From: Nannocystis bainbridge
Lineage (GTDB): Bacteria > Myxococcota_A > Polyangia > Nannocystales > Nannocystaceae
Length of the DNA: 64,000 nt
Direction of reading: 5' to 3'
Assembly: GCF_028368995.1 (NCBI RefSeq)
Contig: NZ_JAQNDL010000001.1
Location: 1,216,001 to 1,280,000 of the forward strand
The position numbers and the translations under genes were made by a program. Within the stretch, counting starts at the first letter, position 1, and each line of letters begins with the position of its first letter. Positions 1-26,023 of this stretch are shown in pieces. The notes under the pieces were generated by a model. That model saw nothing but the letters and a program-made list of their open reading frames with translations. It was not told where the DNA came from and made no database searches.

Positions 1-1927
1 TGTTGGTGTCGCGTCGCCCGCTCTCGAGGATCGCACCGAGCCAGTTGGCCTTGCCGTCGATGAGGCCGAAGCGGTAGCCGTCCATCGATTGCTTGCTCAG
101 GTAGTAGATGATCTCGAGCGTGTCGAGGCGGTTGCCCTGGCGATACGCACGACCGTTGCGCTGCTCGAGATCCGAGGGCGTCCACGGCAAGTCGAGGTGG
201 TGAATGATGCAGGTACGGACCTGGAGGTCGACGCCCTCGTAGGCGACCGAGTTGGCGATGACGACGTCGTACTTCGGCGAGAGCTCGGCCGCGACGCCGC
301 CACGGAGCACGCAGCCCTCGTCCGTCTGTGGCGGCTCAGGCGGCAGGCCGTTGAACTCACGGGCGATGCGCACGCGATCGGCCGGCTTGGCGGTCTCAGC
401 GTTGAGCACCGCGATCCGCTCGCGCGGGACCCCCTGCTCGACCAGCACCTCGAGCATCCAGGCGTGGACGGCCGTCGGTTCGCAAAACACGATGTGTCCG
501 CAACTTCGCTGGGCGGCGATCCGCTGGGCGCACGCGACGAGCTTGGGCGCGCGGAAGTCGGGCGCCGGCAGCGTGCGCGTGCGGGTCTTCTTGACCTCGT
601 TGCCGTCCTCGTCCTCGGACGAGAGGATCTCGATCGACTCGCCGCCGGTCAGGGCGTTCTTCCACTTGTAGCCCTCGTCGAGCTGGCTGTGCAGCGCGAC
701 CACGCTGAGGCGCGCGAGCAGGCCGAGGATCTGGCCGCCGGCGAACTCCTTGCGCTGCTTGAGCGCGGCCTCGATCTCGCTGACGAAGCGGTCGTACTTC
801 GCGGCCTGGCGCGCATCCATGTCGACCTCGACGAGCTGAACCCGCGCGGTCGGTAGCTTAAGGCCGACGTCCTTCGCGGTGCGGAACTCGCCGTAGGTGA
901 GGATGATGTTGCGCAGCTCGTCCAGGTTCTTGAAGCCCGTCACCGCCGAGCGCTTGGTTGTCTTGAGGTCGACGCCCAGGACGTCGCGCATCTCGATCTG
1001 CAGGTAGCGATCGATGAACTGCTCGGGGTCCGAAAGGCGCGACGAGAACGCCCTCGGGTCGATCATCTGGATCAGGTTGTAGAACTCGAGCGGCGAGTTC
1101 TTCGCGGGGGTCGCGGTCAGGAGCATGATGCCGGCCCCACCGGTATTGCGGCGGACGACGGCGGCGCGGAAGTCGAGCTGCCATGCGCGTCGGCTGCCCT
1201 CGCCGGAGCCGCCCATGAACTTCGGGACCCCCGCCTCGCGCTCCTCCGGCATGTACAGGTTCTTGAAAGCCGCGGCCTCGTCCACCATGAGCATGTCGAT
1301 CCCGAGGTCGTCCCACGCGACACCGGGGTCGAACTTGTGGCCCTCGGGGAGCTCGAGGTGCTCTTGCACGAAGGCGCGGACGCCGTGTTTGAGGATCGCC
1401 TGCTGGCGCTCGCTGATCGCCACGCCGCGCTCGAGCTTGTCGCGGGCGTTGCGCTGGCGAATGGCGATCTCGCGGCGGATGCCCTCGACCTGGCGAGCGT
1501 ACTCCACCACGGCGTCCTCGTTCATTTTCGTGCGGCTGAGCGCGTCGAAGCTGAGGATGACGACGTCAGCCTGGCCTGCCTGGAATGCCTGCCACTTCTG
1601 CGCCCGATCCTCGGGGCTGTCGGTCTCCGAGGTGAGGACGTCCTTGCGCTTGCCGCGGGTGCCGCGCCTGCGGATGCTCCCGACCACCAGGACCTTGTAG
1701 CCCGGTAGGCAGCAACGGAAATCGTCGTACCACTTCCACACGAGGGAGCTCGGCACGAGCACCACCGGCCGGCGGACCCAGCCCTCCTGACGCGCTCGCG
1801 CGAGGACGGCGATACCCGTATAGGTCTTGCCGACGCCGACGTCGAACGCGAGCATGCCCCGCCGCAGCGCGAGGAGACGCCGGGCTCCGGCTACCTGATG
1901 TGGCTTCAGGGTCGGGCCATTGTCGCC
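1..1927 (-). CDS. SNF2/SF2 helicase half of a DarB-like methylase-helicase (frameshifted continuation of 1906..4296; runs off the left edge)
   Basis: Manual translation of the -1 frame gives Q-motif LKPHQ, Walker A FDVGVGKT, Ia VLVPSSL, Walker B VDEAAAFKN, motif III LLTATPAKN, V EGVDLQ and VI EQRNGRAYRQG. It is absent from the ORF track because no stop occurs before base 1. Confidence 0.9.
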
Positions 1928-4296
1928 CAGCGGGCGATGGAGAGCGGATCGCCGCTGAACTGCGGGGTGATGATGCCCTTGAATTCGCGGTTGTACGCGT
2001 CGGCGATCCGCTGGCGTCGCTCCTCGTGGTCGCGCAGCCAGTTGTAGAACGATGAGGCGTACTCCTGAGCCTTCAGCGCGCGGAGCTCGGCCTTCTTGCG
2101 CCGCGCGTCCGCGTCGTCGTCGTCGCCGTCGTCGTCGGGGTCGAAGAGGAACTTGTCGTGGTTGATCCACCCGAGGATCCACACGGTCTCCGCGGTGAGG
2201 CCGGCCAGGTCGTCGGTGGTGTTGTAGGCATGGCCCTGCACGCGGACCAGGCCGGCGACCCGCTCGAGCGCGACCGGACCGAGTTCGCGGTTGTACGTGG
2301 CGCTGAGCCATGCGGAGACGAGGTCGAGCGGGACCCACCGCTGCGACGGCGTGATGTCGCTGATGTCCTCGAAGACAGCCGGACCGATCGCCTCGAGCAG
2401 TCGGCGAGCCTGAAGCGCGGCCTGGGGATCGTCGGTCTTCGCGCGAGCGCGGTCGTACTTCGGCCACAGCTCGCCGGTGACGTAGACGTCGAGCGGGACG
2501 ACCTCGTTGTCGTGGTCGAGGTTCCAGTCCGCGGCGAGCAGGCGCGCGAGGATGGCGTCGCGGTCCTGGGCGCCGCCGACCTGGCGGTGGAACTCTACGA
2601 GCGCGGGGAGGAGCAGATGACCGCGCTGGCGGAACAGGAACTCGGCCTGAGCGAGGACGTCGTCCGGCAAGCCGGTGTAGCGCCGCGTCACCTTCGGCGG
2701 CTCCGCGATCGCCGGGGCGAGCTCGCCGGTCGGCGTGAAGGCGTTGAGGAACTGCTGCGCGCCGGTGCTGCGCTCGGCGTGGCGCCGCAGCGGCAGGTAG
2801 CGCCACGGCCCGCCCGCTTGCTGGATCTCGGCGCGCTTCGTGAAGTCGACGAGCGCCGCGCGGAGCTCGACCCACATGCCCTCGGCCCTGTCGGCGTCGT
2901 TGGCCGCGACCGCGGCGAGGTAGCGATCGATGCGCAGGCCGAGGTCCACGGCCGCGCGTAGGGGCTCGGCCAGGTCGCTGGTCTGCTCCTCCGTCGCACG
3001 GATGCCTGACTCGTAGTGGATCGGCTCCTCCGCCGCGATCGCTCCCAAGGCACAGGAGGCGCACATGGGCCGCTCCTCGAACGCGGGGATGCTCTTGAAC
3101 TCGCCAACGACCTTGTATCGCCACGGTCGCTTGGAGCTGACCGCCTCGTCGCCGAGCTCGGGGCCCTCGAGCTCGCCGGCGGGCTTGCCGAGGAGGTGCG
3201 TCGGGAAGTGCTCGTAGTACTGGCCGTCGAGGATGAATCGATCGTCCTCGTCGATCTCGGTGAGCTGGCCGCCGCGGGCGCGGAAGAACAGCACGTCGAC
3301 GACGACGGATGCGCCGGGGAAGACCTCGCGATTGTTTGGCGTGTGGCTTGGCAGGCGGAACGCGGCGGCAAGGTGGTGGCGCGCGAGGAGCTTGGCGCGG
3401 AGGTCGCGGTTGCGCTCGCCGGTGAGAAAGCCGCCCGGGACGATGAAGACGCCCAGGCCGCCGGGCACGAGCATGTCGAGCGCGCGGCGCATAAAGTAGG
3501 CGTAGGCGACGCGCTCGCGGTAGAGCGGGCTGGGATCGTCGAGGGCGAACGCGCCGCGCTCACCATAGGGCGGGTTGCTCAGGATGACGTGGAACCGCCC
3601 GGCGTACTCGCTGCCGTGCTCGCGGACGAACCGCTCGAATGGCATGTGGTGGTGCCGGACGTCGGGGCGCAGCGCGGTGAGCAGGCGCGACGTGGTCTTC
3701 GACAGCTCGACCGTCACCCACTCGATGCCCCGCACAGGGCCAGCGGGGTCGATACAATTCGGCCGGCCCATGGCGCGGAGGAAGCGGCCGATGCCGGCCG
3801 AGGGCTCGAGGATCCGCACGACGCCGTCGTGACCGGCGAGCTCGGGCAGCAGCGGGCAGACGTGCTCCGCGATCGCGTCGGCGATGGCGAGCGGGGTGAA
3901 ATAGGCGTGGATCAGCTCGAAGTCGTCGGGCTCCAGGCCCGCGGGGAGCTGGTCCTTCACTTCCTCGAGCGAGAGGCCGCCCCAGGACGAGTACGCGAGG
4001 AGCTGGCGCCGCTCACCGGGCGTGAGGTCCTCGGGCTTCTTGCTGGCGATGATGCGGAGCGCGGCGAGGTTGGCCTTGGTGCGCTGGCTCTTCGTCCACA
4101 GCTCGGGCGGATCGTCGGCGTCTTGGGTCTGCTCGGCCGTGCGAGCGCGGCGAACGGCGAGCGCGGCGTCCAGCATCTCGATGAGACCGGCGCGCTCCTC
4201 GGCGAGGAATTGATCGAAGACCCGCTGAGGGATCCGCGAGGCCATGTTCGCGCGCCACGCTGGCTCGATGAGCGCGAAGAGTTGCGCGCCGTTCAT
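1906..4296 (-). CDS. N6-adenine DNA methyltransferase half of a DarB-like methylase-helicase
   Basis: N-terminal ANLAALR...LLAYSSWGGL, YFTP, motif I ILEPSAGIGRF and motif IV ILSNPPYG. The ORF stops just after a GGG run where the helicase frame takes over. Confidence 0.9.
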   Translation of the reverse strand: MNGAQLFALIEPAWRANMASRIPQRVFDQFLAEERAGLIEMLDAALAVRRARTAEQTQDADDPPELWTKSQRTKANLAALRIIASKKPEDLTPGERRQLLAYSSWGGLSLEEVKDQLPAGLEPDDFELIHAYFTPLAIADAIAEHVCPLLPELAGHDGVVRILEPSAGIGRFLRAMGRPNCIDPAGPVRGIEWVTVELSKTTSRLLTALRPDVRHHHMPFERFVREHGSEYAGRFHVILSNPPYGERGAFALDDPSPLYRERVAYAYFMRRALDMLVPGGLGVFIVPGGFLTGERNRDLRAKLLARHHLAAAFRLPSHTPNNREVFPGASVVVDVLFFRARGGQLTEIDEDDRFILDGQYYEHFPTHLLGKPAGELEGPELGDEAVSSKRPWRYKVVGEFKSIPAFEERPMCASCALGAIAAEEPIHYESGIRATEEQTSDLAEPLRAAVDLGLRIDRYLAAVAANDADRAEGMWVELRAALVDFTKRAEIQQAGGPWRYLPLRRHAERSTGAQQFLNAFTPTGELAPAIAEPPKVTRRYTGLPDDVLAQAEFLFRQRGHLLLPALVEFHRQVGGAQDRDAILARLLAADWNLDHDNEVVPLDVYVTGELWPKYDRARAKTDDPQAALQARRLLEAIGPAVFEDISDITPSQRWVPLDLVSAWLSATYNRELGPVALERVAGLVRVQGHAYNTTDDLAGLTAETVWILGWINHDKFLFDPDDDGDDDDADARRKKAELRALKAQEYASSFYNWLRDHEERRQRIADAYNREFKGIITPQFSGDPLSIARWATMARP

Positions 4297-4847
4297 GCCT
4301 CGACCTCGCGGCCCACGGTGAGCTCGAGCGCCTCATACTCGCCCGGCTCCAGGGTCGTCGAACCTGCCGTCTCGACGGATTTGGGTTTGCCTGAACCGCT
4401 GCAACCGCAGCCGCCGACCTTGACGCCGCACGTGCCCCCGCACGCTGTGGCCATGCTCGCTAGCGTCGCGTTGAGGCTGGCAACGACCTCGCCGAGTGTC
4501 CGGCGGCCGAACAGGCGGACGGCCTTGTCCTCGCCGCCTCGAGCGAGGAAAGGGCCGTGATTGAGTCGGTCGAGCGACAGCTCACCGATGGCGGTGATGT
4601 CCTGGCGCATCAGGTCGAGCCAGTGGAGCTGGGCGTCGTCGAAGTCGCGCCCGGCGAGCGCCTGGCGGTCGAGCCACCCGTGGAACGCCCTCGCTGCTCG
4701 GCGCTCACGGACGGTCCTGGAGGCGTGGTCGAACGCTTCGCGCAGCGCCGCGCCGTCCTCCGAGAGGAACTGCGCGACGGCCGTCCGCGGGACCTGCGGT
4801 GAGAGGCTGGCCTGCCATCGTGCGAGGGTGTCGTCGAAGTCGACCAT
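4293..4847 (-). CDS. hypothetical protein; N-terminal motif shared with the DarB-like protein; Cys/Gly motif near the C-terminus
   Basis: 184-aa ORF with an ATGA overlap onto the downstream gene; motif CGGTCGVKVGGCGCSG. Confidence 0.8.
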   Translation of the reverse strand: MVDFDDTLARWQASLSPQVPRTAVAQFLSEDGAALREAFDHASRTVRERRAARAFHGWLDRQALAGRDFDDAQLHWLDLMRQDITAIGELSLDRLNHGPFLARGGEDKAVRLFGRRTLGEVVASLNATLASMATACGGTCGVKVGGCGCSGSGKPKSVETAGSTTLEPGEYEALELTVGREVEA

Positions 4848-4850
4848 GGT

Positions 4851-5678
4851 TCATTCCGCCTGCTTCATGGCCTCGACCATGGCGTCTTTGAACGAGTCGC
4901 GCAGCTCCGTGCGCAGCTCGGGGGTCAGCTCGGAGGGTCCTTCGGCCGGTTTCGTCTCGGCCGGTTTCGTTTCGGTCTCCCCTGCATCATTGGCCTGCTT
5001 CTTCGCCCTCGGCTTGGGGGGCGATCGGCGCGGAGGGTCCTTCTGCGCTGTCGTCTCGGTCGCTCCATTCTCCGTGTCGGCTCGCTTCGTCCTCGGCTTG
5101 CGGGGCGCCTGGGGCGGAGCCTCCTGCGCCGGAGCAGGACAGGCATTGTCGATCATCTCTTGCGTGAGCTTCAGTTCGGGGCGCGCAGGCAGTCCCTCAT
5201 CATGAAGGGCCTGGGCGGCTTTTTTCGCGTCGCCGAGCTTGGCGTGGCACGTGATGTGCTTCATCAAGCCGCGGCCCCAGTAAACGTAGATCGCCCAGCC
5301 GCCGCTGCTCGTCTTCAGCACGTGCAGCTCGGCGCCGCGCGACTTCGCGGCGAAGCCGTCATACCCCGCATCCACGATCGGCGCCCATTCGAGAGACGTG
5401 CCCTTCTTCGCCGGCTCCGGAGGGTGCGCGGGCGCAGGGGTTCCGGCTCTCCCCTTGCGCTCCTGGGCCGGCTTCTGGGCGGCGACCTTCGCTTTCGCGT
5501 TGGCCTCCTTCGCTTCGGTCGCCTGCTTGGGCTTGTCGTCCACCGTGTCCCCCTCGTCCTTGTCCCTCTGCTTGGAGGAGACGGAAAGGTCGCCGTTCGA
5601 CTTCTGGACGATGACACGCTCTTTGCGCTCGCCATTGTAGAGGGTCAATCGGATCGTTTCGACAGTCCACTCACTCAT
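4851..5678 (-). CDS. hypothetical Lys/Pro/Ala-rich protein with a central small beta domain
   Basis: 275-aa ORF coupled to its neighbours (8-nt overlap, 3-nt gap); basic low-complexity flanks. Confidence 0.8.
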   Translation of the reverse strand: MSEWTVETIRLTLYNGERKERVIVQKSNGDLSVSSKQRDKDEGDTVDDKPKQATEAKEANAKAKVAAQKPAQERKGRAGTPAPAHPPEPAKKGTSLEWAPIVDAGYDGFAAKSRGAELHVLKTSSGGWAIYVYWGRGLMKHITCHAKLGDAKKAAQALHDEGLPARPELKLTQEMIDNACPAPAQEAPPQAPRKPRTKRADTENGATETTAQKDPPRRSPPKPRAKKQANDAGETETKPAETKPAEGPSELTPELRTELRDSFKDAMVEAMKQAE

Positions 5679-7599
5679 ACGAACCTTCCCTTCGCGGGTC
5701 TCGAGATGATTTGCGACGGTGCCGTGCGACGCCGATCACCGCAGCGAGGGACGACAGCACCGCCGCGCCGCCGAGGACGGCGCCCCACTTGTTGGATTTC
5801 GTGTGCAACGTCGCCTCCACGACGTCGAACGGTAGGCCGCCCTGGGGCCGGAGCGGCGGCGGTAGTCGGGCCCCGCTCTCGTTTCCGTCGAGCGGCGGCT
5901 GGGCCTTGCCGGCGAGCTGGCGGCTGACCGCGGCCCGTTGCGCCTGCGTGGTCGGAACTCCGGCCTCCTTGAGCGCGGCGGCGTAGTCACGATCGATCTC
6001 GCGCGCGGTCTCGTAGTCGACGAGGAAGCGCGACGGATGCGTGAGCAGGCGCTTTCGCATCTCCATGCAATGCGTTTGGAGCGCGGTGTTTCGAAACGCA
6101 GCGTAAATCGGCTTGTCGCCGACCGCCTCTGGCCGGACGTAGGCGCAGTCGAGACTCCGAGACAAGCGGCGGCGCTGGAGCTCGGCGACCGCGCGCAGGG
6201 CTGGGATGACGATCGCCTCGTCGGCGCGCCGGTACTGCGCGAGCAAGAGCTCACCCGGAGGCCAAGGGATGCAGGTGTGGCCGCGGGCGCCGGCGTAGCG
6301 CGTCGGCGGGGGTGCGGTGTAGACCCCTGTCTTCGGGTCGCGCGAGAACTTGCGCGGGTAGTCGCCGCTCTGCTCGCTAGCCTTGCCCGCCTGAATGTCG
6401 GTGTACAGGCAGGTGGTCCACGAGCGCGGCGTCGCCAGCGTGCCCTTGGTGAAGGTCTCCTTGGTTACGAGGGGGACGGTGGTGCCGTCCGTGGCCTCGG
6501 CGCGGATGAACCCGCCCGCGTTGGTGCCGAGACGCCACTCACCGCCGACCTCGCGTGCGAGGAACGGGAGGAGCCAGTCACCGTGGCCTTGATCGAAAAC
6601 GGAGGTGTAGAGCTCAGAGAACCAGTCTCGCCAAAGGGTCTCGAGCATGACACAGTCGACTTTGTAGGCGTCGGGTCCGCCAGCAGCGATCTGCTGCCAG
6701 ACGGTCCCCGCGAGCTGTTGGAGCGATGGGAAGAAGTCGCCGGTCTGCGTGAAGTCGCCGTAGAGGTGAATCAGGGTCCCGTCGTTGTAGAACCGCAGGG
6801 CGGCGTGGGCGGGCTGTGGGCGCCCACGGTATTGCAAGATGCCTGCGACACGGAATGTACCAGGGAGGCAGCCGTAGGCGTCCATCCAAGCAACACCCTT
6901 ACCCGAAAAGGGCGCGAGGACCTGGCCGATGGAATTACCATCTTCGTCGACACCATCGGCCAAGGACCACGAACTGGTCTTTGTTGGAGGGCTGAAGAGG
7001 GCATTCCAGTCGGAGAGCCGATTGTCCACATTGAGAAACGTGCGGACAAACGCCTCATCCACTTTTTCATTATACTTGCGCCACGGCAGGATGGCACGCC
7101 TCTCGGACGGGACTGGGTCTCCCTTTAGGAGCCCCTCGAAGAGGGGAGCCAGCATTTTTCCAATCCCCACGACGATTCCGATGATCCAGCCCGCCACGGG
7201 TACAGCGGTCACGGCGTCGAGCGCAAGATCGACCGCCACGCTGGCCAAGGATGTCAAGAGCTCCACGGGATCCGTGGTCAGCGGGAAGGGTATCTCGGCG
7301 AGCACGCCCGAGATTGAGTCAGTCGTCTTGTCGAGCCAAGCTATCTTCGGCCAGACCTCGCTGAGGAGGTCACCAACCTCAGTCGCCTTGGCTTTCCAGT
7401 TGATCTGCATGGCGTGATTCCACGCCTGTGCTCCTGCCCGAGTCAGCAATGCTTGGCCGACTGTCTGAGCCCCGTCGCTCGTCGCCCGCTCAAGGAGCAT
7501 CAGAAAGGCATCATCTGCGTACGCGTCGGCAGCCGGAAACGGGCTGCTAAAGAGGTCTGGAACGCGATCAAAGAGACGATTGTTTGGGTTGATAAGCAC
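5671..7599 (-). CDS. large hypothetical protein with an internal hydrophobic hairpin and a C-terminal transmembrane anchor
   Basis: 642 aa; AGGAG RBS before GTG; hydrophobic AVPVAGWIIGIVVGIGKMLAPLF; C-terminal WGAVLGGAAVLSSLAAVIGVA followed by RHRRK. Confidence 0.85.
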   Translation of the reverse strand: MLINPNNRLFDRVPDLFSSPFPAADAYADDAFLMLLERATSDGAQTVGQALLTRAGAQAWNHAMQINWKAKATEVGDLLSEVWPKIAWLDKTTDSISGVLAEIPFPLTTDPVELLTSLASVAVDLALDAVTAVPVAGWIIGIVVGIGKMLAPLFEGLLKGDPVPSERRAILPWRKYNEKVDEAFVRTFLNVDNRLSDWNALFSPPTKTSSWSLADGVDEDGNSIGQVLAPFSGKGVAWMDAYGCLPGTFRVAGILQYRGRPQPAHAALRFYNDGTLIHLYGDFTQTGDFFPSLQQLAGTVWQQIAAGGPDAYKVDCVMLETLWRDWFSELYTSVFDQGHGDWLLPFLAREVGGEWRLGTNAGGFIRAEATDGTTVPLVTKETFTKGTLATPRSWTTCLYTDIQAGKASEQSGDYPRKFSRDPKTGVYTAPPPTRYAGARGHTCIPWPPGELLLAQYRRADEAIVIPALRAVAELQRRRLSRSLDCAYVRPEAVGDKPIYAAFRNTALQTHCMEMRKRLLTHPSRFLVDYETAREIDRDYAAALKEAGVPTTQAQRAAVSRQLAGKAQPPLDGNESGARLPPPLRPQGGLPFDVVEATLHTKSNKWGAVLGGAAVLSSLAAVIGVARHRRKSSRDPRREGSYE

Positions 7600-7601
7600 T
7601 T

Positions 7602-7955
7602 CTAATTGTACTCCTCTCCTTCACACAACATGTTGGTTGCACAAACCAACGGCGTGGCCAGGGTCTCGGGGCAGGGGTTCTCAGAGTCGCAGGCGATATG
7701 ACAAACACCGACCGCACATGTGTGCTCCCTGCTTTCGATGGGCTGGCAATCATCGGACGTCGCGCAAAGCTCTTCGCAGTAACCGAAGTAGCACGAGAGC
7801 CCCGAGGCGCAGCCGTCCGGCGTGTTGTCTGCTTCGCCGATGACGCAGGGTTCGCCGAATTCGCCGGGCTCGTTCGGGGCGGGGTCCTCCTTGCAGCCGG
7901 GGACGGCGAACAGGGCGAGGAACAGGGCCGAGGTGATGAGGGTCGTGTTGCGCAT
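7602..7955 (-). CDS. small Cys-rich lipoprotein
   Basis: Signal MRNTTLITSALFLALFAVPG-C (lipobox-like), followed by 12 more Cys in under 100 aa. Confidence 0.8.
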   Translation of the reverse strand: MRNTTLITSALFLALFAVPGCKEDPAPNEPGEFGEPCVIGEADNTPDGCASGLSCYFGYCEELCATSDDCQPIESREHTCAVGVCHIACDSENPCPETLATPLVCATNMLCEGEEYN

Positions 7956-8004
7956 GGCGGGAGCGTAGGCCAGCGCGGGTCCTCCCGTCGAGCGCGTGGC
8001 GCAC

Positions 8005-9012
8005 TCAGCCAGCACGGGCCACCTCCACCGCGTGGTTGCGCAGGCACGGGTCGGCCGAGATCACGGCGAGCTGCCGGAGCTCGGGAGACAGCGAGCCGAG
8101 GGCTCGCAGCGTCGCTCGCCGCACCGCGAAGAAGCACGCGAAGCGGCGGTTGATGTAGTTGTACGCCGAGGCCGCGAGCCGACCGCGTGTCCCGTCGAGG
8201 CCGGCGAGGGTCAGGCTGCCTTGATGCACGTGCAGGAACCCACCGCGGCGATAGAGCTGGCCAGGCGTCGCGCGGCCGGGCGGGAACGCGGGCAGACGCG
8301 CCACGAGGGGCGCGGTGTGTGTCGTGAAGTGCTCGAAGATCGCGGCGACCTGGCGCGCGTCCTGGCGGAGGTTGCCCTCGGGATCGAGCGCGCGGGCCAT
8401 GAGGCGCATGCCGTCGACCGCTGGGAAGGCCGCGCGCGAGGCCCAGCGCAGGCCGGGGCCAGTACCGTCGAGGCGGGAGTTGTAGACCCAGGGGAAGGTC
8501 CCGAGGTGCAGGACCAGCGGCGTCGTCCACCCGCAGGCGCTCTCGGCTCGCGGGGGAGGCCCCGACCAGCCGTCACCGAAGTAGCCCGGCGCGGTGTCGG
8601 GGTGGAAGGCGCGAAGCATCTGCTCGCCATCGTCGTAACAGGCTCCGGTGGGGAGCGTCGTCGGGTCGACCGAGACGCGCCAGAGGTCGCCGCGCGCGTG
8701 GACGCCGAGCTCGCGCAACACCGCCTCCTGCCCGCGCGCGTGGCTGTCCGAGAGGCCAGGGCGCGTGCGCGGCAGCCAGCGGGCGAAGGCGTCGAGGCCG
8801 GCCTGATTGGTCGCGGCCAGCCGGTCACGAACGGCTCGTAGCGGCGCGAGCGTGCCCTCGAGGTCCTGCGAGAACCCGAGTGTCTCGGCGATCGCCTGCC
8901 ACTCGAGGCGGTACCAGGCGTGAACGTCCATCGGCGAGCGGAGGTCGAAGTCGCCGACCAGGTCGGCGAGCGCCTTGATCCCGCGGCCGTAGCAGTTGAT
9001 GTCCGGTGTCAC
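8005..9012 (-). CDS. hypothetical protein (335 aa)
   Basis: GTG start in a GTGA overlap with the upstream stop and an AAGGAGG RBS; globular-looking sequence MTPDINCYGRGIKAL... Confidence 0.8.
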   Translation of the reverse strand: MTPDINCYGRGIKALADLVGDFDLRSPMDVHAWYRLEWQAIAETLGFSQDLEGTLAPLRAVRDRLAATNQAGLDAFARWLPRTRPGLSDSHARGQEAVLRELGVHARGDLWRVSVDPTTLPTGACYDDGEQMLRAFHPDTAPGYFGDGWSGPPPRAESACGWTTPLVLHLGTFPWVYNSRLDGTGPGLRWASRAAFPAVDGMRLMARALDPEGNLRQDARQVAAIFEHFTTHTAPLVARLPAFPPGRATPGQLYRRGGFLHVHQGSLTLAGLDGTRGRLAASAYNYINRRFACFFAVRRATLRALGSLSPELRQLAVISADPCLRNHAVEVARAG

Positions 9013-9854
9013 GCGACCTCCTTCGGCAGCGTGCCGACGAGGCCGGCGAGCACCGCGGGCACGCCGGGCCAGGCGGAGGCGTCGAGCTTGGGCGGGATCG
9101 TCGTCGCGTCCGTCAGATCGACGTTCAGCGCGATCGCGTCGGTGAGGAAGCGGGCCCGGACGTCGTGGTAATCCGAGCTGCCTCGTTCGTCCTTGAGCAG
9201 AGACGGGCTCGCCCAGCCGACCTTGATGTCGGCGAGATCGTCGACTCTGTAGTTCGCCAGGATTCGCTGCATGTACACAGCCGCCCCGAAGGCCGCGGCG
9301 CGCGGCTGAAAGACCAGTTCGGGCGGCGAGTTCAGCAGCGGCGCCCTTTTGCCGACCTCCGGGACGCCCGTCCACAGGAAGTACGGAGCGAGCAGTCCGA
9401 AAAGGCCGCCGCTCCCAAACTCCGCCGCCTGATCGGCATAGCGCAGCGGCGGGTTGCGGTCCTTGTTGTTCTTGTACGCCCGGCGCGAGCTGTCGCGCTC
9501 GTCTGCTTCGCCCGTCGCGTTGCCGTTGTGGGCGGCAGTGACGAAACGCGATTCGCGGTAAGAGATCACCGCGAACACGCGTGCCGACCCGGGGATCCGC
9601 GCGACCTCCTCCATCAGCATGAACAAGGGGCGAAGGTCCGTCGGCGTCTCGCCCCAATTGGTCGAGAGGTCGCCCTTCACATCGGTGGCCCTCGGGAGCG
9701 GCGCCAGGTCGACCACCGGCGAATCGGATGCCGGTGGCGGCGTCGAGGTCGGCGGAGCTGCGGCGCTGGCTCTGCGGCTCCACAGGAGCGAGCCGCCGAT
9801 CACACCGCCGACGCCGGCCAGCGTGCCGATCATAGTCCAGAGGTTGCGGCTCAT
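9009..9854 (-). CDS. signal-anchored lytic transglycosylase/lysozyme-fold-like protein
   Basis: N-terminal TM (LWTMIGTLAGVGGVIGGSLLW), Pro linker, SLT-like motif I AVISYRESRF (candidate catalytic Glu), motif II-like GGLFGLL, and FQPRAAAFGAAVYM resembling the 'P..N...G..Y' helix; ATGA overlap. Confidence 0.65.
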   Translation of the reverse strand: MSRNLWTMIGTLAGVGGVIGGSLLWSRRASAAAPPTSTPPPASDSPVVDLAPLPRATDVKGDLSTNWGETPTDLRPLFMLMEEVARIPGSARVFAVISYRESRFVTAAHNGNATGEADERDSSRRAYKNNKDRNPPLRYADQAAEFGSGGLFGLLAPYFLWTGVPEVGKRAPLLNSPPELVFQPRAAAFGAAVYMQRILANYRVDDLADIKVGWASPSLLKDERGSSDYHDVRARFLTDAIALNVDLTDATTIPPKLDASAWPGVPAVLAGLVGTLPKEVA

Positions 9855-10564
9855 CGCGCGGCCTCCTGCGCCCGCAGGCGCTCGCTCAGCCGGTCGAGCT
9901 CCCGGGCTCGGCTCAGGCTCACCGCCGAGTACACGGCGCTCCCGGTGATGACGAGGGTCGTGCCGGCGACCAGGGCGACTCGGCCGGTCGTCCACGAGCT
10001 CGGGCTCGGCGGCTCGGGCTGTGTCGACACGCCACCGCCGTTGGTCGGGGTGACGTCGCCGCTGGCCTGGGTCGAGCTGGTTGCGTGGGCCGTCGGCTGC
10101 GCGCCAGGTATGACCCAGCCGACCGGGTGCCACCATTTCTTGATGGTGGCGATGTCCCATAATTCGAGCGCCCGGTAGAGCGGCTCCCACGCCGCTCCCT
10201 CGGAGGAGTTGCGATCGGGCAGCCGATTCGCGGGATCGGCATCGGGAGAGAGAGCCTGTCCCAGGAGCAGGGTGAGCGCCGCGGGCGGCGTGATGGTCCC
10301 GAAGGTCGGCAAGCCGACAACCACGCCACCGCCGCCGCGGGGCGTGGTCGTCCGGACCGCCGACCACGGCCAGTCCGCGGCTGGCGCCAGCTTGACACGC
10401 GCCATGAAACCGGCGCGCGCCGGCTCGCTGGCCTCGTCGTAGGCAGCGCGGAGCAGCTGCGCGACGTCCTCCTCACGCAGGAGCCGCTCGGGACCCTTCA
10501 GCGTGCGCTCGGCCGCCGACAGCTCCATGAGGCGGGCGACGCGGTGTCGATCGATACTGGCCAT
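9851..10564 (-). CDS. hypothetical protein with Thr/Pro linker and C-terminal TM helix
   Basis: AAGGAG RBS, start MASIDRHR; TM VALVAGTTLVITGSAVYSAVSL. Confidence 0.8.
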   Translation of the reverse strand: MASIDRHRVARLMELSAAERTLKGPERLLREEDVAQLLRAAYDEASEPARAGFMARVKLAPAADWPWSAVRTTTPRGGGGVVVGLPTFGTITPPAALTLLLGQALSPDADPANRLPDRNSSEGAAWEPLYRALELWDIATIKKWWHPVGWVIPGAQPTAHATSSTQASGDVTPTNGGGVSTQPEPPSPSSWTTGRVALVAGTTLVITGSAVYSAVSLSRARELDRLSERLRAQEAAR

Positions 10565-10614
10565 GGTGGTGCTCCTTGACGAATGAGGAGAGTCGCGGCG
10601 CGAACCGACTGGAA

Positions 10615-11340
10615 TCAGTCGGCGACCCAGGTCCACTGCTCGCCGTTGTTCATGATGATCCCGCTGCGCTGAATGGCTTGCGCGATCGCACCGCCGGCGA
10701 ACAGGTCGCCCGCCGCGGCGTGGAGCGTGGGCATGCCCGGCCCCTTGCGCGTGACGGTGAGGACCGCATCGAGCGGCACGATCGAGCGCGTCGGGAGGGT
10801 GATGGTGCCGACGTTGACGCTGTCGTAGATGACGTGGAGCGTTCCGAGCCACCCCGGCAGCGCCGCGCTCGCGGTGAACCGCGCGACACGGACGCCGGTG
10901 TCGCGTGCCCTGAAGACGGCCTCGGACCACTCGCGGAGGCGCGAGCCGAGCTCGTTGACGCCGCCGATGCTCTCGATCAGCAGCTCGAGCTTGACGAGCG
11001 CCTGTGGCGGCGTGAACACGCGGAGTTCGTCGCTCGGACGGACGAGGGTGAGCCGCGTGTTATCAGCGCTGGGGGTGTACTGCGCACGGATCTGCGTCGG
11101 CGCGCCGGTCCGCACCTCGAGGAACGTCTGCGGGTCGAGTGGCTGCGTGGTCAGGATGCACGCGTGCAGCATGTAGGGGTCGCCCGCCGGGACCTGTCCC
11201 CAGAGACCGGCGGGCAGCACGCCGGCCGGCGCCGTCAGCTCAGCCTCGTTCCAGCCCTCCACGAGCTTGAACACGGGCTTCTCCGTGACCGGGGTCTGGC
11301 CGTCGAAGCCGCCGCGGGTGATGAGCTTGATCTTGTTCAT
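10615..11340 (-). CDS. beta-rich hypothetical protein (candidate structural/spike protein)
   Basis: Start MNKIKLITRGG 8 nt after the upstream stop; many alternating hydrophobic strands (LHVIYD, TITLP, LTVTRKG, WTWV). Confidence 0.8.
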   Translation of the reverse strand: MNKIKLITRGGFDGQTPVTEKPVFKLVEGWNEAELTAPAGVLPAGLWGQVPAGDPYMLHACILTTQPLDPQTFLEVRTGAPTQIRAQYTPSADNTRLTLVRPSDELRVFTPPQALVKLELLIESIGGVNELGSRLREWSEAVFRARDTGVRVARFTASAALPGWLGTLHVIYDSVNVGTITLPTRSIVPLDAVLTVTRKGPGMPTLHAAAGDLFAGGAIAQAIQRSGIIMNNGEQWTWVAD

Positions 11341-11348
11341 CGTTGGCC

Positions 11349-12032
11349 CTACTTCTCGCTCCCGCCCTTGCACCCGCGCTGGCACGAGCGGCCCGCCGCG
11401 CAGGAGGAGCAGCACTTGACCGCGTTGGCGTGCTCGACGTGGAGGCGGATGTTCTCGATCTGGTTCGCGTTGCCCAGGTGGCTGATGCGTACGCGCAGCC
11501 GGTTGTTGCCGCCGATGCAGCAGTGTTCGCCCATCGCCAGCGGGATCGGCAGCTTGCCCTCGCCGATCACGGTGTTGTCGTTGTTGTAGATCTCGCTGCC
11601 GTACTGAATCGCGTCGAGCGGCTCGGTGTCCACGAACCACTCGATCCGGATGTCGTCGTGGTTGTTCGCGTTGTTGGCCAAGCGGTAACGAAGCACGTAG
11701 CAGGCCGTGGGCCATGGCGGGTAGGCGGCCTGGGACAGAACGACCGACGAGCCTGGCGCCAGCGGGATCTGGCCCTCCACTACCTGATCGATGTTGGTGC
11801 GGCCGCCGCGGTAGAACCGAGCCACCGTGATCGGCGCGTACAGCAAGTTCTCGCAGCCGATCTTCGGCACGCCCATGCCGCACGCGGGCAGGTCGCCCTC
11901 GGTTGTCGGCAACGCGCCAACGCCGCCCATGCGCGCGAGATTCTGCGCGATCTCGACGCTGCCCATGCGCACGAGGTTCTCGGCGATCTCGCGGCCGAGC
12001 AGCTTCACAGTCTCTTGTTTCTCGATATCCAT
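11349..12032 (-). CDS. beta-rich hypothetical protein (candidate single jelly-roll capsid-like protein) with a Cys-rich tail
   Basis: Strong AGGAG RBS; strand-like segments YVLRYRL, IRIEWFVD, LRVRISH, IRLHVEH; C-terminal CCSSCAAGRSCQRGC. The ORF is solid; the fold is inferred. Confidence 0.75.
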   Translation of the reverse strand: MDIEKQETVKLLGREIAENLVRMGSVEIAQNLARMGGVGALPTTEGDLPACGMGVPKIGCENLLYAPITVARFYRGGRTNIDQVVEGQIPLAPGSSVVLSQAAYPPWPTACYVLRYRLANNANNHDDIRIEWFVDTEPLDAIQYGSEIYNNDNTVIGEGKLPIPLAMGEHCCIGGNNRLRVRISHLGNANQIENIRLHVEHANAVKCCSSCAAGRSCQRGCKGGSEK

Positions 12033-12117
12033 CGTATCTCCTGATTGTGCGTAGAGTGATCCTGTCCCTCATCCGCACGGGACGAGGGATGATTGTGGTG
12101 ATCTTGTAATTGTCAGA

Positions 12118-12531
12118 TTACGCGCGACACGAGTCGCCGGTCATGCGAACGCCGAGGAGCTCCGCGAGACCGTCCGTGGTGGAGCGAGCGTCGGCCGCCG
12201 GGGCGCCAGTGGCGATGCTGGACGCCGCGGGTTGCTGGCGGCCCGTCAGCTCGAGGAACTGCTCATCCGCGGTCCGTGGCGTGGACAGGCTGGGCATCTG
12301 GGACGCACTGCGGACCTGGGTCGTTGTGGGGGCCTGCGCTTCAGCGACAAGCACGGGGATGGCGTGAGCCGACCACGTGAACACGAGGACGTGGCCCTCA
12401 GCCAAGTCGCGCGCGGCGTCGGTCGGGACCTCGAGCTTGATTTCGAGGCCGTCCGCGTCGACTGCATGCACGAGCACTCGTGCGGAGTGTCCGCGCATGA
12501 GCTCCCGGATCCGTGCGACCTGGGTTCTCAC
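12118..12531 (-). CDS. hypothetical protein (137 aa)
   Basis: GTG start in a GTGA overlap with the upstream gene. Confidence 0.7.
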   Translation of the reverse strand: MRTQVARIRELMRGHSARVLVHAVDADGLEIKLEVPTDAARDLAEGHVLVFTWSAHAIPVLVAEAQAPTTTQVRSASQMPSLSTPRTADEQFLELTGRQQPAASSIATGAPAADARSTTDGLAELLGVRMTGDSCRA

Positions 12532-12968
12532 GCGCCGCCCCCCTGACCCGGCACCAGGCGGGTGTACGCGAACGTGCTCGCCGCATAGGCGGCGCCGCCG
12601 ACCGCGATCGTGGCGCGGGCGACGAGGCTGACGTCGGCCGCGGCCGCGGCGATCACGGCGATCACGCCCGCTGCTGCGAGCGGCGGGACCGGCCCGACGC
12701 GGACGTCGAGGGTCTTCTGCGCGATCATGCCGGTCGCCACGCCAGCCGCCCCGCTCGCCGCGAGCATCAGGACCTCCTGCCATCGGCCCCGGCGGAGCTG
12801 GCCGACCATCGCCGACGCCTCGGTGTCGGTGCTCGCGCGCCGGATAGCCTGGGCGGTGTCGAGGTCGTGCGCGGCGTAGTAGTGATCGATGATCATCTTC
12901 ATCGCCTTGCCCATGCCGCGCTCCTCCATGCGGAGGCTCTCGCCGGGCGTCTGTGGTGATTCTGCCAT
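12528..12968 (-). CDS. small multi-pass membrane protein
   Basis: GGAGGGG RBS; three Ala/Gly-rich hydrophobic segments. Confidence 0.8.
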   Translation of the reverse strand: MAESPQTPGESLRMEERGMGKAMKMIIDHYYAAHDLDTAQAIRRASTDTEASAMVGQLRRGRWQEVLMLAASGAAGVATGMIAQKTLDVRVGPVPPLAAAGVIAVIAAAAADVSLVARATIAVGGAAYAASTFAYTRLVPGQGGGA

Positions 12969-12986
12969 TGTCTTGATCCCCTCCCT

Positions 12987-13592
12987 CTACGATGGTTGGC
13001 CGCCGATGTTGCTAAAGCCGGCGATGAGGTCGCTGGTGGTGATGCCCTCGGCCTCGGGCTTCTTCCGGCCGAACTGAGCGGCCCGGAAGGCCGCGTGCTC
13101 GGCCGCGGCGGCGATGTGCAGGCCGCGGTCGAAGGTGTCAATCTCCTTGAGCGCCTCCCGGTGCTGACGGCGCTGGTCGGAGCACTCCTTGGAGTATTCG
13201 CGGAGGTCCTTCATCTGCTCGTCGAAGAGTCGTCGCGTGTTGGCGGCGGCGGCTTCGAAGGTCTGGAGCTGGAGCTGCGTGAGCGCGGCCAGGCTGCCGT
13301 GCATGAGCTCCGTGAAGGTCTTGAAGTCACCGAGTTGGAGCGCCATCGAGGCAGGCGCAGCCGCGGGCGCCTCTGCGGGCATCGTCGCGGTCTGCGGCGC
13401 CGTTGCGTCTGCTGGCGCAAATCGCCGTGCGAGCGCCGCGGTGTCGATGAGCTCGCCCTCCATGTAGATGCTCGCGTCCGAGACCCCGAAATGCCACCCG
13501 AGGATGAACGACGGAGCGGCATTGAGCTCCACGTCGACGTCGGTCACGAGCTCGTCGCTCACCAGCACCACGATCCTCGCCTTCGCCACCAT
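12987..13592 (-). CDS. hypothetical coiled-coil protein, first gene of the operon
   Basis: GGAGG RBS before ATG (MVAKARIVV); heptad-like helical C-terminal half. Confidence 0.75.
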   Translation of the reverse strand: MVAKARIVVLVSDELVTDVDVELNAAPSFILGWHFGVSDASIYMEGELIDTAALARRFAPADATAPQTATMPAEAPAAAPASMALQLGDFKTFTELMHGSLAALTQLQLQTFEAAAANTRRLFDEQMKDLREYSKECSDQRRQHREALKEIDTFDRGLHIAAAAEHAAFRAAQFGRKKPEAEGITTSDLIAGFSNIGGQPS

Positions 13593-13925
13593 CGCTGACC
13601 TCCGGATTGAAGCTGAAACACCTCGTCCGTGTGAGTCAACCAGTATTTTTTGACAATCGACTGCTCGCATTCGTGCATCGGCAATTCGAGGGTGCGCGGA
13701 ATGCCATCGGGAATGTGCCGAGCTCGATTGATTTCGCTCATTATAATCGATGCATCGTCCGATCATCGACGCGACACCCAGGGTCTACCGGCCAGCGAAC
13801 CGGTGGCATAGCCACGTTATCCTGGGCGTGACGGCGATCCTAGAGCCGTGAAGCGTCAGGCGCCGGAACGTCGGCTACGCGGGTCCTGCACGACGATCCA
13901 GGATTTTTGACGTGACTGACGAGTC

Positions 13926-15704
13926 GTGTACCGTGCTCGCGTCGACTGGTCGCAGGTGTCCGAGAAGGCCAAACAACTGCTCGATGCATGGTGGCGTGAA
14001 TACGAAGCCTGCAAGCGGGGCTGCGATTCACTGGTGCTCGGCGAGCACGTGCGTGACGGGCGAGTGCATATCCATGGCGACGTCCGATCGGACTGCGCGA
14101 TGGTCTATGTCCACCCGTCCGGCTGCGTGACGCCGGTCGTCCTCGGCGACCACCGCGCGTGCATGGCCGCCTGCTGGCACGTGAGCGCAGCGGAGATCGA
14201 GATGTGGGACCGGGCGAAGCACCCGCCGCCCGCCGTGTGCATCGGCGGCGTCGATCGCCTCTTCACGCCGCTGCGGGGCCGTGTCGTGGTCGGCGCCGTC
14301 GAGGATGGGACGGCCGTCGTGTTGCTCGGCTTCCTCGGCACGCGCTGGGCAGTCGCGTACTGCGAGCCCGGGCGGCTGGAGTGGATCACTGCTGGCGACC
14401 GGCTCGGGACCCTCGACCTGGACGTGTGGCGGGTGATGCACCCGCGCCCGACGCCGGCATCGCCGCGGAAGTCGTCCGCGCCGCCGCCTCGGCCCGATCC
14501 GCAGCTCGACAGGATCCGCGAGCTCCACCGCCGTGTGCGCGGAGACTTCGGCGACGACGATCCGGTGACGGAGATCGGCGAGGTCGTCGTGAAGTGCCTC
14601 GAGGCCCAGGTCGAGCGCGTGCCTTGCGACCCGCTGCGTGAGCGCCTGGACTTCCTCGTCGATCTCATCGTCGAGGCGGGCCGCCGGGGCCTCCGCGCCG
14701 ATCCGGTCGGCACCAAGAGGGAGCTCGCGGAGATGTTCTCCAGGGTGCTGAGCCGGGTCATCACGCCAGCGGAGCTGGGGGAGGCGCTGCTGGCCGCGCG
14801 GGAGCTGGGCTGCTGCTTCGTGTCACTTCATGGGCGCACGTGGACGCTTCGGCTGTGCGAGCTCGTCGATCTGCGATCCGAGTTGCATCGGCGCCTGCTC
14901 GAGCAATCCGTGTCGGGTTTCGTGCTCGGGCGTGCGTCACGCGGCGTGCGAACGCCGCCACCCACTGCACAAGCCACGAAGATGCAGCCGGCGCCGACAG
15001 ACGCCGGGCCGGCCGACAGTTCGGCTCCGACCTCGGCCACCGCTCTGCCTGCGGATTGGCTCGGTCTGATCACGAGCCTGTTGTTGGTCGCGAACCTGTT
15101 CGCGGCGACGCTCGAGCAAAGGACTAACGAATGCACCGAGTTTCGTGGGCAGGCGCAGCTCGGGCACTTGTCGCTGAAGCAGGTCCACGACTGCCGTGAG
15201 GTCGAGCGCGAGAGCTGGGCTGCGGAGCGCGAAGCGCTCGGGGGGCAGGTCGACGCGCTCCGTGCGGAACTCGCCGGGTTGCGGGCCGCGCGGGAGGCCC
15301 AGGCGGGCCGGGAACGGGAATTCTCTGGGCAGGTCGACGCGCTCCTTGCCGAGCTCGCCGCGGTCCGGGACGAGTTGGACGCTGCGGACCTCGAGATCGA
15401 TGCGCTGCGAAGACGCCAGGCCGAGGCCAGCGCGGCTCACGAGAGGCTCGCCGGATGTGTCGAGCGCGCGAGAGACTCCCGGCTTGCGGCGGCAGGGACG
15501 GCCGCTCGGTCGGACGACAGCGCGACCCGACCGGCCATGGCGATGAACCTCGGCGCCGGCCCTGCGATCGCACACACCTCGCCTCGCGAACCGGAGGTTG
15601 CGACGAACATCGAGTACAACATGCACGAGTTGGGCGCGCACGGGCCTCGCGGTCCTCCTGCATCGCCAGGGTGCTCACCGAGCCGTAGCGACTCTCCGCG
15701 CTGA
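13926..15704 (+). CDS. hypothetical multidomain protein (possible wHTH plus coiled coil), divergent from the operon
   Basis: 592-aa ORF; central GTKRELAEMFS...ELGCCFVSLHGRTWTL resembles a winged helix; long C-terminal coiled coil. Start is uncertain. Confidence 0.65.
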   Translation: MYRARVDWSQVSEKAKQLLDAWWREYEACKRGCDSLVLGEHVRDGRVHIHGDVRSDCAMVYVHPSGCVTPVVLGDHRACMAACWHVSAAEIEMWDRAKHPPPAVCIGGVDRLFTPLRGRVVVGAVEDGTAVVLLGFLGTRWAVAYCEPGRLEWITAGDRLGTLDLDVWRVMHPRPTPASPRKSSAPPPRPDPQLDRIRELHRRVRGDFGDDDPVTEIGEVVVKCLEAQVERVPCDPLRERLDFLVDLIVEAGRRGLRADPVGTKRELAEMFSRVLSRVITPAELGEALLAARELGCCFVSLHGRTWTLRLCELVDLRSELHRRLLEQSVSGFVLGRASRGVRTPPPTAQATKMQPAPTDAGPADSSAPTSATALPADWLGLITSLLLVANLFAATLEQRTNECTEFRGQAQLGHLSLKQVHDCREVERESWAAEREALGGQVDALRAELAGLRAAREAQAGREREFSGQVDALLAELAAVRDELDAADLEIDALRRRQAEASAAHERLAGCVERARDSRLAAAGTAARSDDSATRPAMAMNLGAGPAIAHTSPREPEVATNIEYNMHELGAHGPRGPPASPGCSPSRSDSPR

Positions 15705-16188
15705 CCTGGCCTCACCGGGGACGTGCTGTGTTGCATGCGGAATATCTGGTGAATGCGTGAACAAAGCCGCTCACACGCCGCAGGATGACTCTGGCGTCCA
15801 GTCTGGGACACCCTCGATATCATCGGGATTCCTCCAGACAATCTAAAAGACTCGAGCAGTCGCTCGCCAAGTTCGCACCGCCTCCGGGCTCGACGCCGGG
15901 GGCGGGGCCGACGACGAAACCGAAGCTCGGGGACCGGGCGGCGTCGGTGGGAATCCCTGCGCCGCCGGATCTGCTGGTCAGCGAGGCACGCGCGCGTGTG
16001 GGGGCGCCATCTCGAGCCCGTGCCGCCACCACGGGTGGAACCATGGGTCCGCTCGAATGGTCGAGCTTGCTGGCTTTCACGATGGAGGTGCATGCTCGAC
16101 GGCTGACCGTCACAACCAAGATCGTCACGCAGCCGCCACCCGCCACGACGGTTGTCAAACCGCGGCGGCGCGGCGAGGATGCAGGCTG

Positions 16189-25789: not shown

Positions 25790-26023
25790 GGGCACTCCTT
25801 GCAATCTCTGCACAGCGCGCAGCGCTCGCGCCGCCCCGCATGGGCTGCCGGGCGGAGCGGACGGGCGCAGGATGCGTCACGCGCTCGCTTATGCCAGTTT
25901 TCCCGGCCCGGGACCATCGGCCCGAACATTAAGATCTCCTGAATCGTTAAATCTTCGTGTAGCAAGCGAATCGTCGATTGAACCGAGGGTGAATGCGATA
26001 AAGTGAGAGTAGGAGTGAATCAC

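Follow-up and report, generated by a model that had tools for sequence, protein, structure and literature searches.

DarB of phage P1 and its kin in phages and conjugative plasmids are giant polypeptides in which an N6-adenine DNA methylase with an NPPY motif is followed by an SNF2/DEAD-type helicase. Membrane-containing tailless phages such as PRD1 (Tectiviridae), PM2 (Corticoviridae) and P23-77 (Sphaerolipoviridae), some of them temperate, encode numerous small membrane proteins and a lytic enzyme associated with the membrane, along with neighbouring small proteins rich in beta structure. Likenesses to both are seen in a mobile element of the myxobacterium Nannocystis bainbridge, the larger part of which lies in a 64 000-nt stretch of DNA (the window, C1:1216001-1280000, contig NZ_JAQNDL010000001.1) from a genome of 11.05 Mb in five contigs with approximately 71.5 % G+C. 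A 2026 survey based on clustered regularly interspaced short palindromic repeats (CRISPR), available as a preprint, places 98.4 % of 790 myxobacterial viral groups in Caudoviricetes; a word search of the preprint gives no mention of Nannocystis or of tailless viruses, and its supplementary tables could list such contigs. As far as the preprint goes, nearly all known myxobacterial viruses are tailed, and the element family described here differs from them.

The operon filling the first 13 592 nt of the window was found to be part of an integrative mobile element with a tyrosine recombinase, which extends from the integrase gene to orf592 over approximately 25.6–26.4 kb and of which window positions 1–15704 are the larger part (Table 1). 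The first-pass annotation had described an operon ending in a DarB-like methylase-helicase gene. The DarB-like assignment was recovered in both Pfam and PHROGs, but the operon continues past this gene (g13) with seven more same-strand genes to the left of the window, the last of which encodes the integrase. At the other end, orf592 belongs to the element, its relatives (26–47 % identity) occupying the same divergent position beside g1 in two paralogous copies and in other loci; it had no match in Pfam, PHROGs, PADLOC or NCBIfam.

The two paralogous copies lie on contig C2 of the same genome, with the same gene order and 40–83 % amino-acid identity. The resemblance between these two starts within the orf592 homologue and stops where the integrase gene ends, and their integrases are only 26 % identical to that of the window element. 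By profile search, relatives were present in six of ten other genomes of the genus and in none of 30 genomes from other genera of the family and class, while a phylum-wide sample returned three of 401 genomes, these being the genome itself and two marginal matches (E ~7e-4). All eight loci from a collection of species-representative genomes are from Nannocystis. Relatives are encoded on 82 metagenome stretches, of which 80 were kept. Among matching loci 7 kb or longer, G+C content is 66–71 % and most keep the order g2-g3-g4-g5-g6-g7-g8-(g9)-g10-g11-giant gene; open reading frames (ORFs) in these other loci were called with a simple caller based on third-position G+C (GC3), which misses genes running off contig ends. 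The flanks of three contigs that were scanned hold differing host genes, namely Ser/Thr kinases (L057, L070) and a glyoxalase (L028), and these copies are integrated, at different sites. The element is thus integrated, multi-copy, restricted to the genus, patchy in its presence and strongly syntenic, and the earlier expectation of an integrated mobile element with synteny elsewhere is borne out by the C2 copies, the Nannocystis genomes and the metagenome loci.

A shorter lineage, here termed type B, was recognized in seven loci (L010, L012, L013, L021, L023, L045 and L077). Retained in it are g4 and g5, together with a tail-anchored protein, a relative of g7 and a 195-aa methyltransferase-like protein; the giant gene is divergent upstream where flanks are visible, and hydrolases of the phospholipase/carboxylesterase family are added. 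In the Nannocystis exedens locus L010 (10001-13151), the g5 copy is split by an ISL3-family transposase with other insertion sequence (IS) genes nearby, which indicates that some copies of the element are decaying. Split g5 matches of the same pattern occur in another genome of the genus. Solitary relatives of g7 (61 % identity), the 195-aa protein (63 %) and g10 (39 %) were observed at C2:520127-520807 and C3:1544287-1552304; these could be left over from former copies or belong to another type of element.

The C-terminal domain of g5 is predicted to be the trimerizing module of phage tail fibres and tailspikes. There were 147 BFVD matches to g5 at E<=0.001, and the named entries among the best 50 of the 147 are tail, tail-fibre and minor tail proteins. 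In a three-copy prediction the interface fell at residues 149-241, with an ipSAE interface score of 0.88 vs 0.00 for the best of three controls, a partner predicted local distance difference test (pLDDT) score of at least 78 and at least 55 % of contacts in agreement between runs. In the calibration of this score, 20 of 30 solved pairs and one of 23 single chains reached the mark; it was made on two copies and applies only roughly to the g5 prediction, which used three copies and a custom alignment. Because solved structures exist for trimeric relatives of the domain, the trimer result may reflect likeness to them. The g5 family has 151 members (E<=0.001) in an index of 5.8 billion proteins, with a length nearly fixed at 240 aa. 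Neither the g5 nor the g4 profile gave anything credible against PDB sequences.

The beta-rich pair g4 and g5 had been likened in the first-pass annotation to jelly-roll capsid proteins. For g5 this candidate role is not supported, the model being one beta-sandwich plus a fibre domain and not a double jelly-roll; the g4 model (pLDDT 54.5) is unreliable and too poor to judge, showing a sandwich core with non-specific matches. The g4 protein is a candidate receptor-binding partner of g5. Its N-terminal third is the most variable part of the alignment, with Ala-rich insertions. Separately, 11 metagenome contigs of at least 4 kb start within g4 or between g4 and g5 (L035, L040, L044, L045, L050, L061, L063, L064, L074, L075 and L076). 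Strain-level hypervariability of g4, as expected of a receptor-binding protein, may break the assemblies at this point.

By its domain matches, g13 is a DarB-like methylase-helicase, with methylase and SNF2 domains in one polypeptide in the paralogues. The methylase part matches Pfam Eco57I (1.7e-9) and N6_Mtase (4.6e-5), both above cut-offs, and has an NPPY motif in its translation; its best PHROG is phrog_11801 'DNA methyltransferase' (1.7e-49), and it also matches phrog_10089 'DarB-like antirestriction' (1.8e-21), the 'defense against restriction' protein of the P1-like phage D6 and a 'structural protein' of Pseudomonas phage 8P. The helicase part matches Pfam SNF2-rel_dom (1.1e-17), Helicase_C (4.8e-9) and ResIII (8.3e-7), and its SNF2 domain appears to be the only recognizable nucleoside triphosphatase (NTPase) domain in the element. 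The gene product had been described as a single fusion of more than 1400 aa: both domains were matched, but here they occupy two frames separated by a 1-nt frameshift near 1925-1935. At the junction, the paralogues read ...VRWGSHAPKLKPHQ... in one frame, and the window copy reads ...ARW in one frame and GDNGPTLKPHQ in the next, with a G missing. In the paralogues the intact protein is read from one ORF, of 2742 aa in one copy and 2739 aa in the other. The frameshift may have arisen by mutation and inactivate the gene, or it may be an artefact of assembly at the homopolymer.

Three further proteins are conserved across the loci. The most conserved protein of the element is g7, at 70-85 % identity. 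It has 401 relatives, with no Pfam domain among the 120 of the 401 matches listed. It had been called transglycosylase-like; the Pfam SLT domain was matched by four of 21 family members (best E 0.053), a weak point in favour, but the window g7 itself has no match. Across the family, residue 101 is always Glu, and in the window g7 the next residue is Ser; these features weakly suggest that g7 is a possible wall hydrolase. For g8, mean column identity in the alignment is 72 % and an all-library hidden Markov model (HMM) search reached 112 representative clusters; 21 of the 22 relatives scanned had no Pfam match, the other having an unrelated ChaN haem-binding domain, and no usable ESM Atlas match was found. 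For g10, the best that the ESM Atlas offered was a lead below threshold (0.87) to an unnamed half-viral cluster. Searched as profiles against PDB sequences, g7, g8 and g10 gave nothing credible, and members of the g8 and g10 families, searched one by one against PHROGs, gave nothing below E 0.03.

Family searches with all element proteins were made against Pfam, PHROGs, NCBIfam and PADLOC. Among the 13 window genes, above-cut-off matches to curated families were obtained for g12 and g13 only; g1-g11, orf592 and four of the left-flank proteins had nothing significant in Pfam, PHROGs or NCBIfam. In these three databases there was no tail, relaxase, VirB4 or type IV coupling protein (T4CP) family across the element, and the first-pass annotation was correct in recognizing no terminase, portal, tail, VirB4 or T4CP gene. 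It had suggested that a packaging ATPase or replication gene might lie on the left flank, where none was found as far as the integrase. A six-frame scan for the Walker-A pattern gave two matches, one out of frame and one in the coiled-coil-looking protein of the left flank, which has no ATPase family match, and no terminase-like P-loop; the scan is a loose one in that its pattern misses the GKT motif of the SNF2 protein itself. Structure prediction covered g4 and g5, and the roles given here to about 18 other proteins come from composition, anchors and position.

Together, the operon encodes the fibre-module protein g5, several membrane-anchored proteins, wall-active enzymes, a ClpP-like protease and the DarB-like giant protein, the putative wall-active enzymes being the M23/peptidoglycan-binding protein to the left of the window and, weakly, g7. 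The reading we favour, tentatively and at somewhat less than an even chance, is that of a temperate, non-tailed virus-like element. On this reading g5, perhaps with its beta-sandwich neighbour g4, would attach a particle to the next cell, and the membrane proteins g2, g6, g9 and g10 would serve entry and release together with the wall hydrolases. The basic protein g11, by composition a candidate DNA-coating protein, could coat the DNA. The DarB-like protein would travel with the DNA and methylate it or shield it from restriction, as in phage P1, and the integrase would then insert the element. Since neither a capsid-protein nor a packaging-ATPase family can be detected, a particle bounded by a membrane, or unconventional in some other way, is more probable than an icosahedral capsid of the PRD1 or PM2 type. 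Of the earlier proposal of a structural and delivery module of an integrated tailless virus, the mobile element and a module of phage-virion type in g5 are retained, but the PRD1/PM2-type picture of g5 is not. The broader claim of an undescribed integrated virus-like or DNA-delivery element survives, with partial support.

Several observations weigh against a virus-like nature. Searches of Pfam, PHROGs and NCBIfam with the proteins of the whole element turned up no family of capsid, portal, terminase, A32/FtsK/HerA ATPase or replication proteins. The three families scanned in IMG/VR (g5, g7 and g8) had no relative there, and g5 and g8 had none in 50 697 phage records searched with tblastn. One of the approximately 20 proteins has a confident fold, the other 'structural' roles being guesses, and conjugative plasmids carry DarB-like proteins as often as phages do (1147 plasmid records were matched, of which 398 are predicted to be conjugative). 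Type B lacks g8 and g10, and these therefore cannot be universal virion parts. Every instance with flanks examined sits between host genes, and no free or circular form was seen; four metagenome runs yielded short low-depth contigs only, with no bridging contig or circle junction, and their joints all had 20-25-nt sides and were treated as noise. Neither att repeats nor an empty site could be defined: there was no tRNA at the element ends, in none of the three copies do the two flanks share a direct repeat of more than 14 nt, and in two close relatives no empty site was defined because the left flank is non-syntenic there. A CRISPR search bearing on invasiveness, which counts neither for nor against, found no Cas1, and the seven repeat regions inspected of 29 flagged were coding tandem repeats.

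A fibre-type module in an element without capsid, portal, terminase or ATPase families would also be accounted for by a helper-dependent satellite, which would use the capsid of a tailed phage resident in the same cell and contribute its own fibre (g5, perhaps g4), entry and lysis proteins and anti-restriction protein, and the size of about 26 kb and the integrase fit known satellites. We nevertheless regard this as unlikely, as the roughly 20 conserved genes of unknown function are far above what is known from satellites, the Pfam and PHROGs scans gave no hallmark (primase, capsid-size redirection or small terminase), and no helper was identified, no search for co-occurring prophages having been made. 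The many membrane-anchored or lipoprotein-like products and the wall-active enzymes could alternatively form a non-viral transfer device, in which an envelope apparatus or loaded vesicles pass excised DNA to a neighbour, perhaps with the SNF2 translocase as motor; the SNF2 protein is the sole NTPase, and DarB-like proteins are frequent on conjugative plasmids. This has a slim chance of being correct, given that searches of Pfam, PHROGs and NCBIfam revealed neither a relaxase, VirB4 or coupling protein nor an FtsK-like translocase, that the g5 module is overwhelmingly from phage virions among its matches and that no SNF2 protein is known to export DNA.

The frameshift in the window copy of the giant gene, the interruption of one N. 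exedens copy by ISL3 transposases and the chromosomal position of all instances seen would suit an integrative island with an operon that plays no part in DNA transfer. The operon would be cell-surface, kin-recognition or defence cargo, in the last case with the methylase-helicase as a defence gene of restriction-modification-like type, and the integrase would spread the island with help from elsewhere; alternatively, the island would be a remnant that has been domesticated or is decaying. The helicase also gives generic matches to the defence helicases DrmD, DpdE and ZorD, but these are far below family cut-offs (79.7 vs 610 bits for DrmD), and PADLOC matches to known defence systems including DISARM were to generic SNF2 and methylase models, with no partner proteins or other system components present. 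Furthermore, the three diverged, syntenic, open-frame copies in one genome, the patchy presence and the differing insertion sites suggest an actively spreading element under purifying selection, which makes such an island distinctly unlikely. Very improbable is an ordinary tailed prophage with head, tail and packaging genes diverged beyond recognition. It would fit the Caudoviricetes-type fibre module of g5 and the weak head-maturation-protease matches of the ClpP-like protease (7.6e-6 and 1.4e-5 in PHROGs), but an element of about 26 kb with 8 kb in one gene leaves too little room. Profile searches usually pick up terminase and portal genes even in remote phages, and here there is no match to either and no terminase-like P-loop, folds having been predicted for g4 and g5 only. 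The 2026 preprint describes its groups of myxobacterial viruses by HK97 capsid, terminase and portal hallmarks.

Within the preferred reading of a temperate, non-tailed virus-like element, a more specific form can be put forward, which we rate as doubtful. The element would be a new virus or virus-like DNA-transfer element of Nannocystis, forming particles without a known capsid fold or packaging ATPase; these might be membrane-bounded with g4/g5 fibres, or built from a capsomer of three g4 and three g5 beta-sandwiches. The DNA would be delivered with the 300-kDa methylase-SNF2 protein, whose SNF2 domain might even be the DNA-loading motor.

The gene model of the window was chosen using GC3 and start context because, at 71.5 % G+C, the ORF list is crowded (98 ORFs of at least 60 aa in 16 kb). 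Peaks of GC3 (0.7-0.99) track the frames of g1-g13, with frame switches falling exactly at ORF borders, and from window position 13700 to 2635 bases left of the window the peak lies in a single minus-strand frame at a time. A GGAGG-like sequence precedes most of the chosen starts; for g1 the start is the ATG at 13592, with GGAGG upstream and agreement in GC3 phase. The co-oriented minus-strand run described in the first-pass annotation does fill positions 1-13592, but it comprises 13 genes rather than 12, and the four start/stop overlaps it listed (4293, 9009, 9851 and 12528, each of 4 nt) follow from the gene coordinates. Transmembrane segments were checked with a crude hydropathy scan at a strict threshold, which flagged one segment in g2, three in g10 and none in g6, g7 or g9; the anchor and signal calls for g6, g7 and g9 and the coiled-coil call for g1 are readings of the sequence. 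Of the three transmembrane segments previously assigned to g2, one was thus flagged, but the other two depend on inspection of its residues.

Table 1. Features of the Nannocystis element, with window coordinates; left-flank genes lie to the left of the window on the strand of the operon
Feature	Coordinates	Strand	Description
orf592	13926..15704	+	592 aa, Cys-rich, C-terminal half coiled-coil-looking; divergent from operon
Divergent intergenic region orf592/operon	13593..13925		Presumed control region, by position
g1	12987..13592	-	201 aa, acidic; small beta-looking N-terminus, Ala/Pro-rich linker, helical C-terminal half
g2	12528..12968	-	146 aa, small membrane protein, Gly/Ala-rich hydrophobic stretches
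g3	12118..12531	-	137 aa; GTG start overlapping g2 stop
g4	11349..12032	-	227 aa; variable N-terminus, beta-sandwich core ~76-206, conserved Cys-rich tail
g5	10615..11340	-	241 aa; beta-sandwich 1-125, helix 131-145, tail-fibre/tailspike-type domain 150-241; predicted trimer
g6	9851..10564	-	237 aa; putative C-terminal hydrophobic anchor
g7	9009..9854	-	281 aa; N-terminal hydrophobic anchor
g8	8005..9012	-	335 aa, soluble, highly conserved
g9	7602..7955	-	117 aa, acidic, lipoprotein-like; 13 Cys, signal-like N-terminus ending in Cys
g10	5671..7599	-	642 aa; hydrophobic segments near 115-153 and 607-625, large domain between
g11	4851..5678	-	275 aa, net basic, Lys/Pro/Ala-rich
g12	4293..4847	-	184 aa; EcoEI_R_C domain (C-terminal domain of type I restriction R subunits)
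g13 N-terminal part	1906..4296	-	N6-adenine DNA methylase frame, 796 aa, stops at 1906
g13 frameshift	1920..1940	-	One base missing from G-run relative to paralogues; splits gene
g13 continuation	1..1921	-	SNF2-type helicase frame; extends to 2635 bases left of window, ~1518 aa
Left flank 1		same strand	301 aa; PG_binding_1 (5e-7), sub-threshold M23 peptidase, endolysin PHROG matches (best 2.6e-8), C-terminal membrane anchor
Left flank 2-3		same strand	Two small proteins, one tail-anchored
Left flank 4		same strand	530-aa coiled-coil-looking protein
Left flank 5		same strand	195 aa, sub-threshold S-adenosylmethionine (SAM)-methyltransferase match
Left flank 6		same strand	Membrane-anchored ClpP-like SDH-type serine protease (1.3e-13)
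Left flank 7	~9.9 kb left of window	same strand	Tyrosine integrase; Phage_integrase (1.9e-23), PHROG 1 (1.1e-45)

Conservation of the remaining genes differs along the operon. Relatives of g1 were found in L008, L009, L016 and L017 at 21-41 % identity. Conservation of g2 extends to 20 loci (30-79 %), its sole Pfam row being below its cut-off. There are 18 relatives of g3 and 24 of g6 (38-62 %) in the loci, neither with a family match, and g9 has relatives (29-52 %) in the two paralogous copies and 13 loci. The g11 protein is weakly conserved (24-45 %) and has no family match. The g12 domain corresponds to Pfam PF08463 (E 4.6e-11); its sole relative among the loci is in L016, and the g12 slot is variable, with different genes at the same position in other copies. 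Scans of the divergent intergenic region for sigma-70 promoters and terminators returned 0 sites.

Beyond the element on the right, the genes next to orf592 are by appearance of two-component-system-like and resistance-nodulation-division (RND)-efflux-pump-like types, with 78-83 % DNA identity in two relatives and homology beginning at window positions 16182-16188. Farther right, a 162-aa ORF at window positions 26015-26503 (+) has a signal-like N-terminus followed by a long, near-pure Glu/Asp/Gly repeat of EEEDEG units. On the integrase side, a stretch of about 350 nt outside the integrase gene (L002 9735-10117, equivalent to window -10265 to -9883) recurs at 81-94 % identity at many places in other genomes of the genus and twice more in its own genome, and contains short GGCA(A/C)CC-type repeats and a hairpin; the two C2 copies, with their different integrase, are without it. 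It may be the end of an integrase module or an attachment region common to several elements. An Rfam scan beside the integrase gave chance-level rows only.

The element family is plentiful in metagenomes from activated sludge and soil, and Nannocystis genomes carry it in multiple copies. At the level of listings and abstracts, literature on Nannocystis prophages, DarB-type integrative elements and Myxococcota jelly-roll proviruses gave no description of it, and the lack of IMG/VR relatives of g5, g7 and g8 suggests that virus catalogues may be missing it. It combines a fibre module with numerous membrane proteins and a giant protein of DarB type but has none of the capsid and motor genes that define known virus realms or conjugative systems. 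If particles are formed, this would be a new virus lineage, possibly with a new way of loading DNA; if not, it would be a large and successful mobile element spreading by some other route.

Compared with the known systems introduced above, the methylase part of g13 is only 24-28 % identical to any phage or plasmid record, about 900 C-terminal residues of the giant protein have no match, and the window copy is frameshifted, unlike DarB. Membrane-containing tailless phages differ from the element in having double or paired single jelly-roll capsids and an FtsK/HerA/A32-type ATPase, which were not found here, and in genomes of 10-19 kb vs 26 kb with an 8-kb gene. The predicted fold of g5 can be likened to the N-terminal and adaptor domains of phage tailspikes and baseplates, namely CBA120 TSP4 (residues 80-178), the Klebsiella phage KP1 baseplate and the Pseudomonas phage Pa223 capsid spike. 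However, sequence identity to these is 9-20 %, with no sequence-level match to PDB or PHROGs, and g5, at 241 aa, has neither shaft nor enzymatic head, in an element without a tail or baseplate for docking.

Phage satellites (P4, phage-inducible chromosomal islands (PICIs) and capsid-forming PICIs) resemble the element as integrase-bearing islands of 10-30 kb without a full set of virion genes. They differ in that no primase or replicase, small terminase or capsid-redirecting gene was detected in the element, whose conserved genes of unknown function are far more numerous and whose own contribution is a fibre, not a capsid. To our knowledge, no capsid-less or enveloped element of such a kind is known from a diderm host of the delta-proteobacterial type. 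The likeness to capsid-less or enveloped viruses and vesicle plasmids, such as Plasmaviridae L2, the pleolipoviruses, phi6 and Halorubrum pR1SE, is by analogy, without a sequence or fold link: these have few or no capsid genes and combine a spike with membrane proteins, some of them integrate, and phi6 carries a wall hydrolase in its virion.

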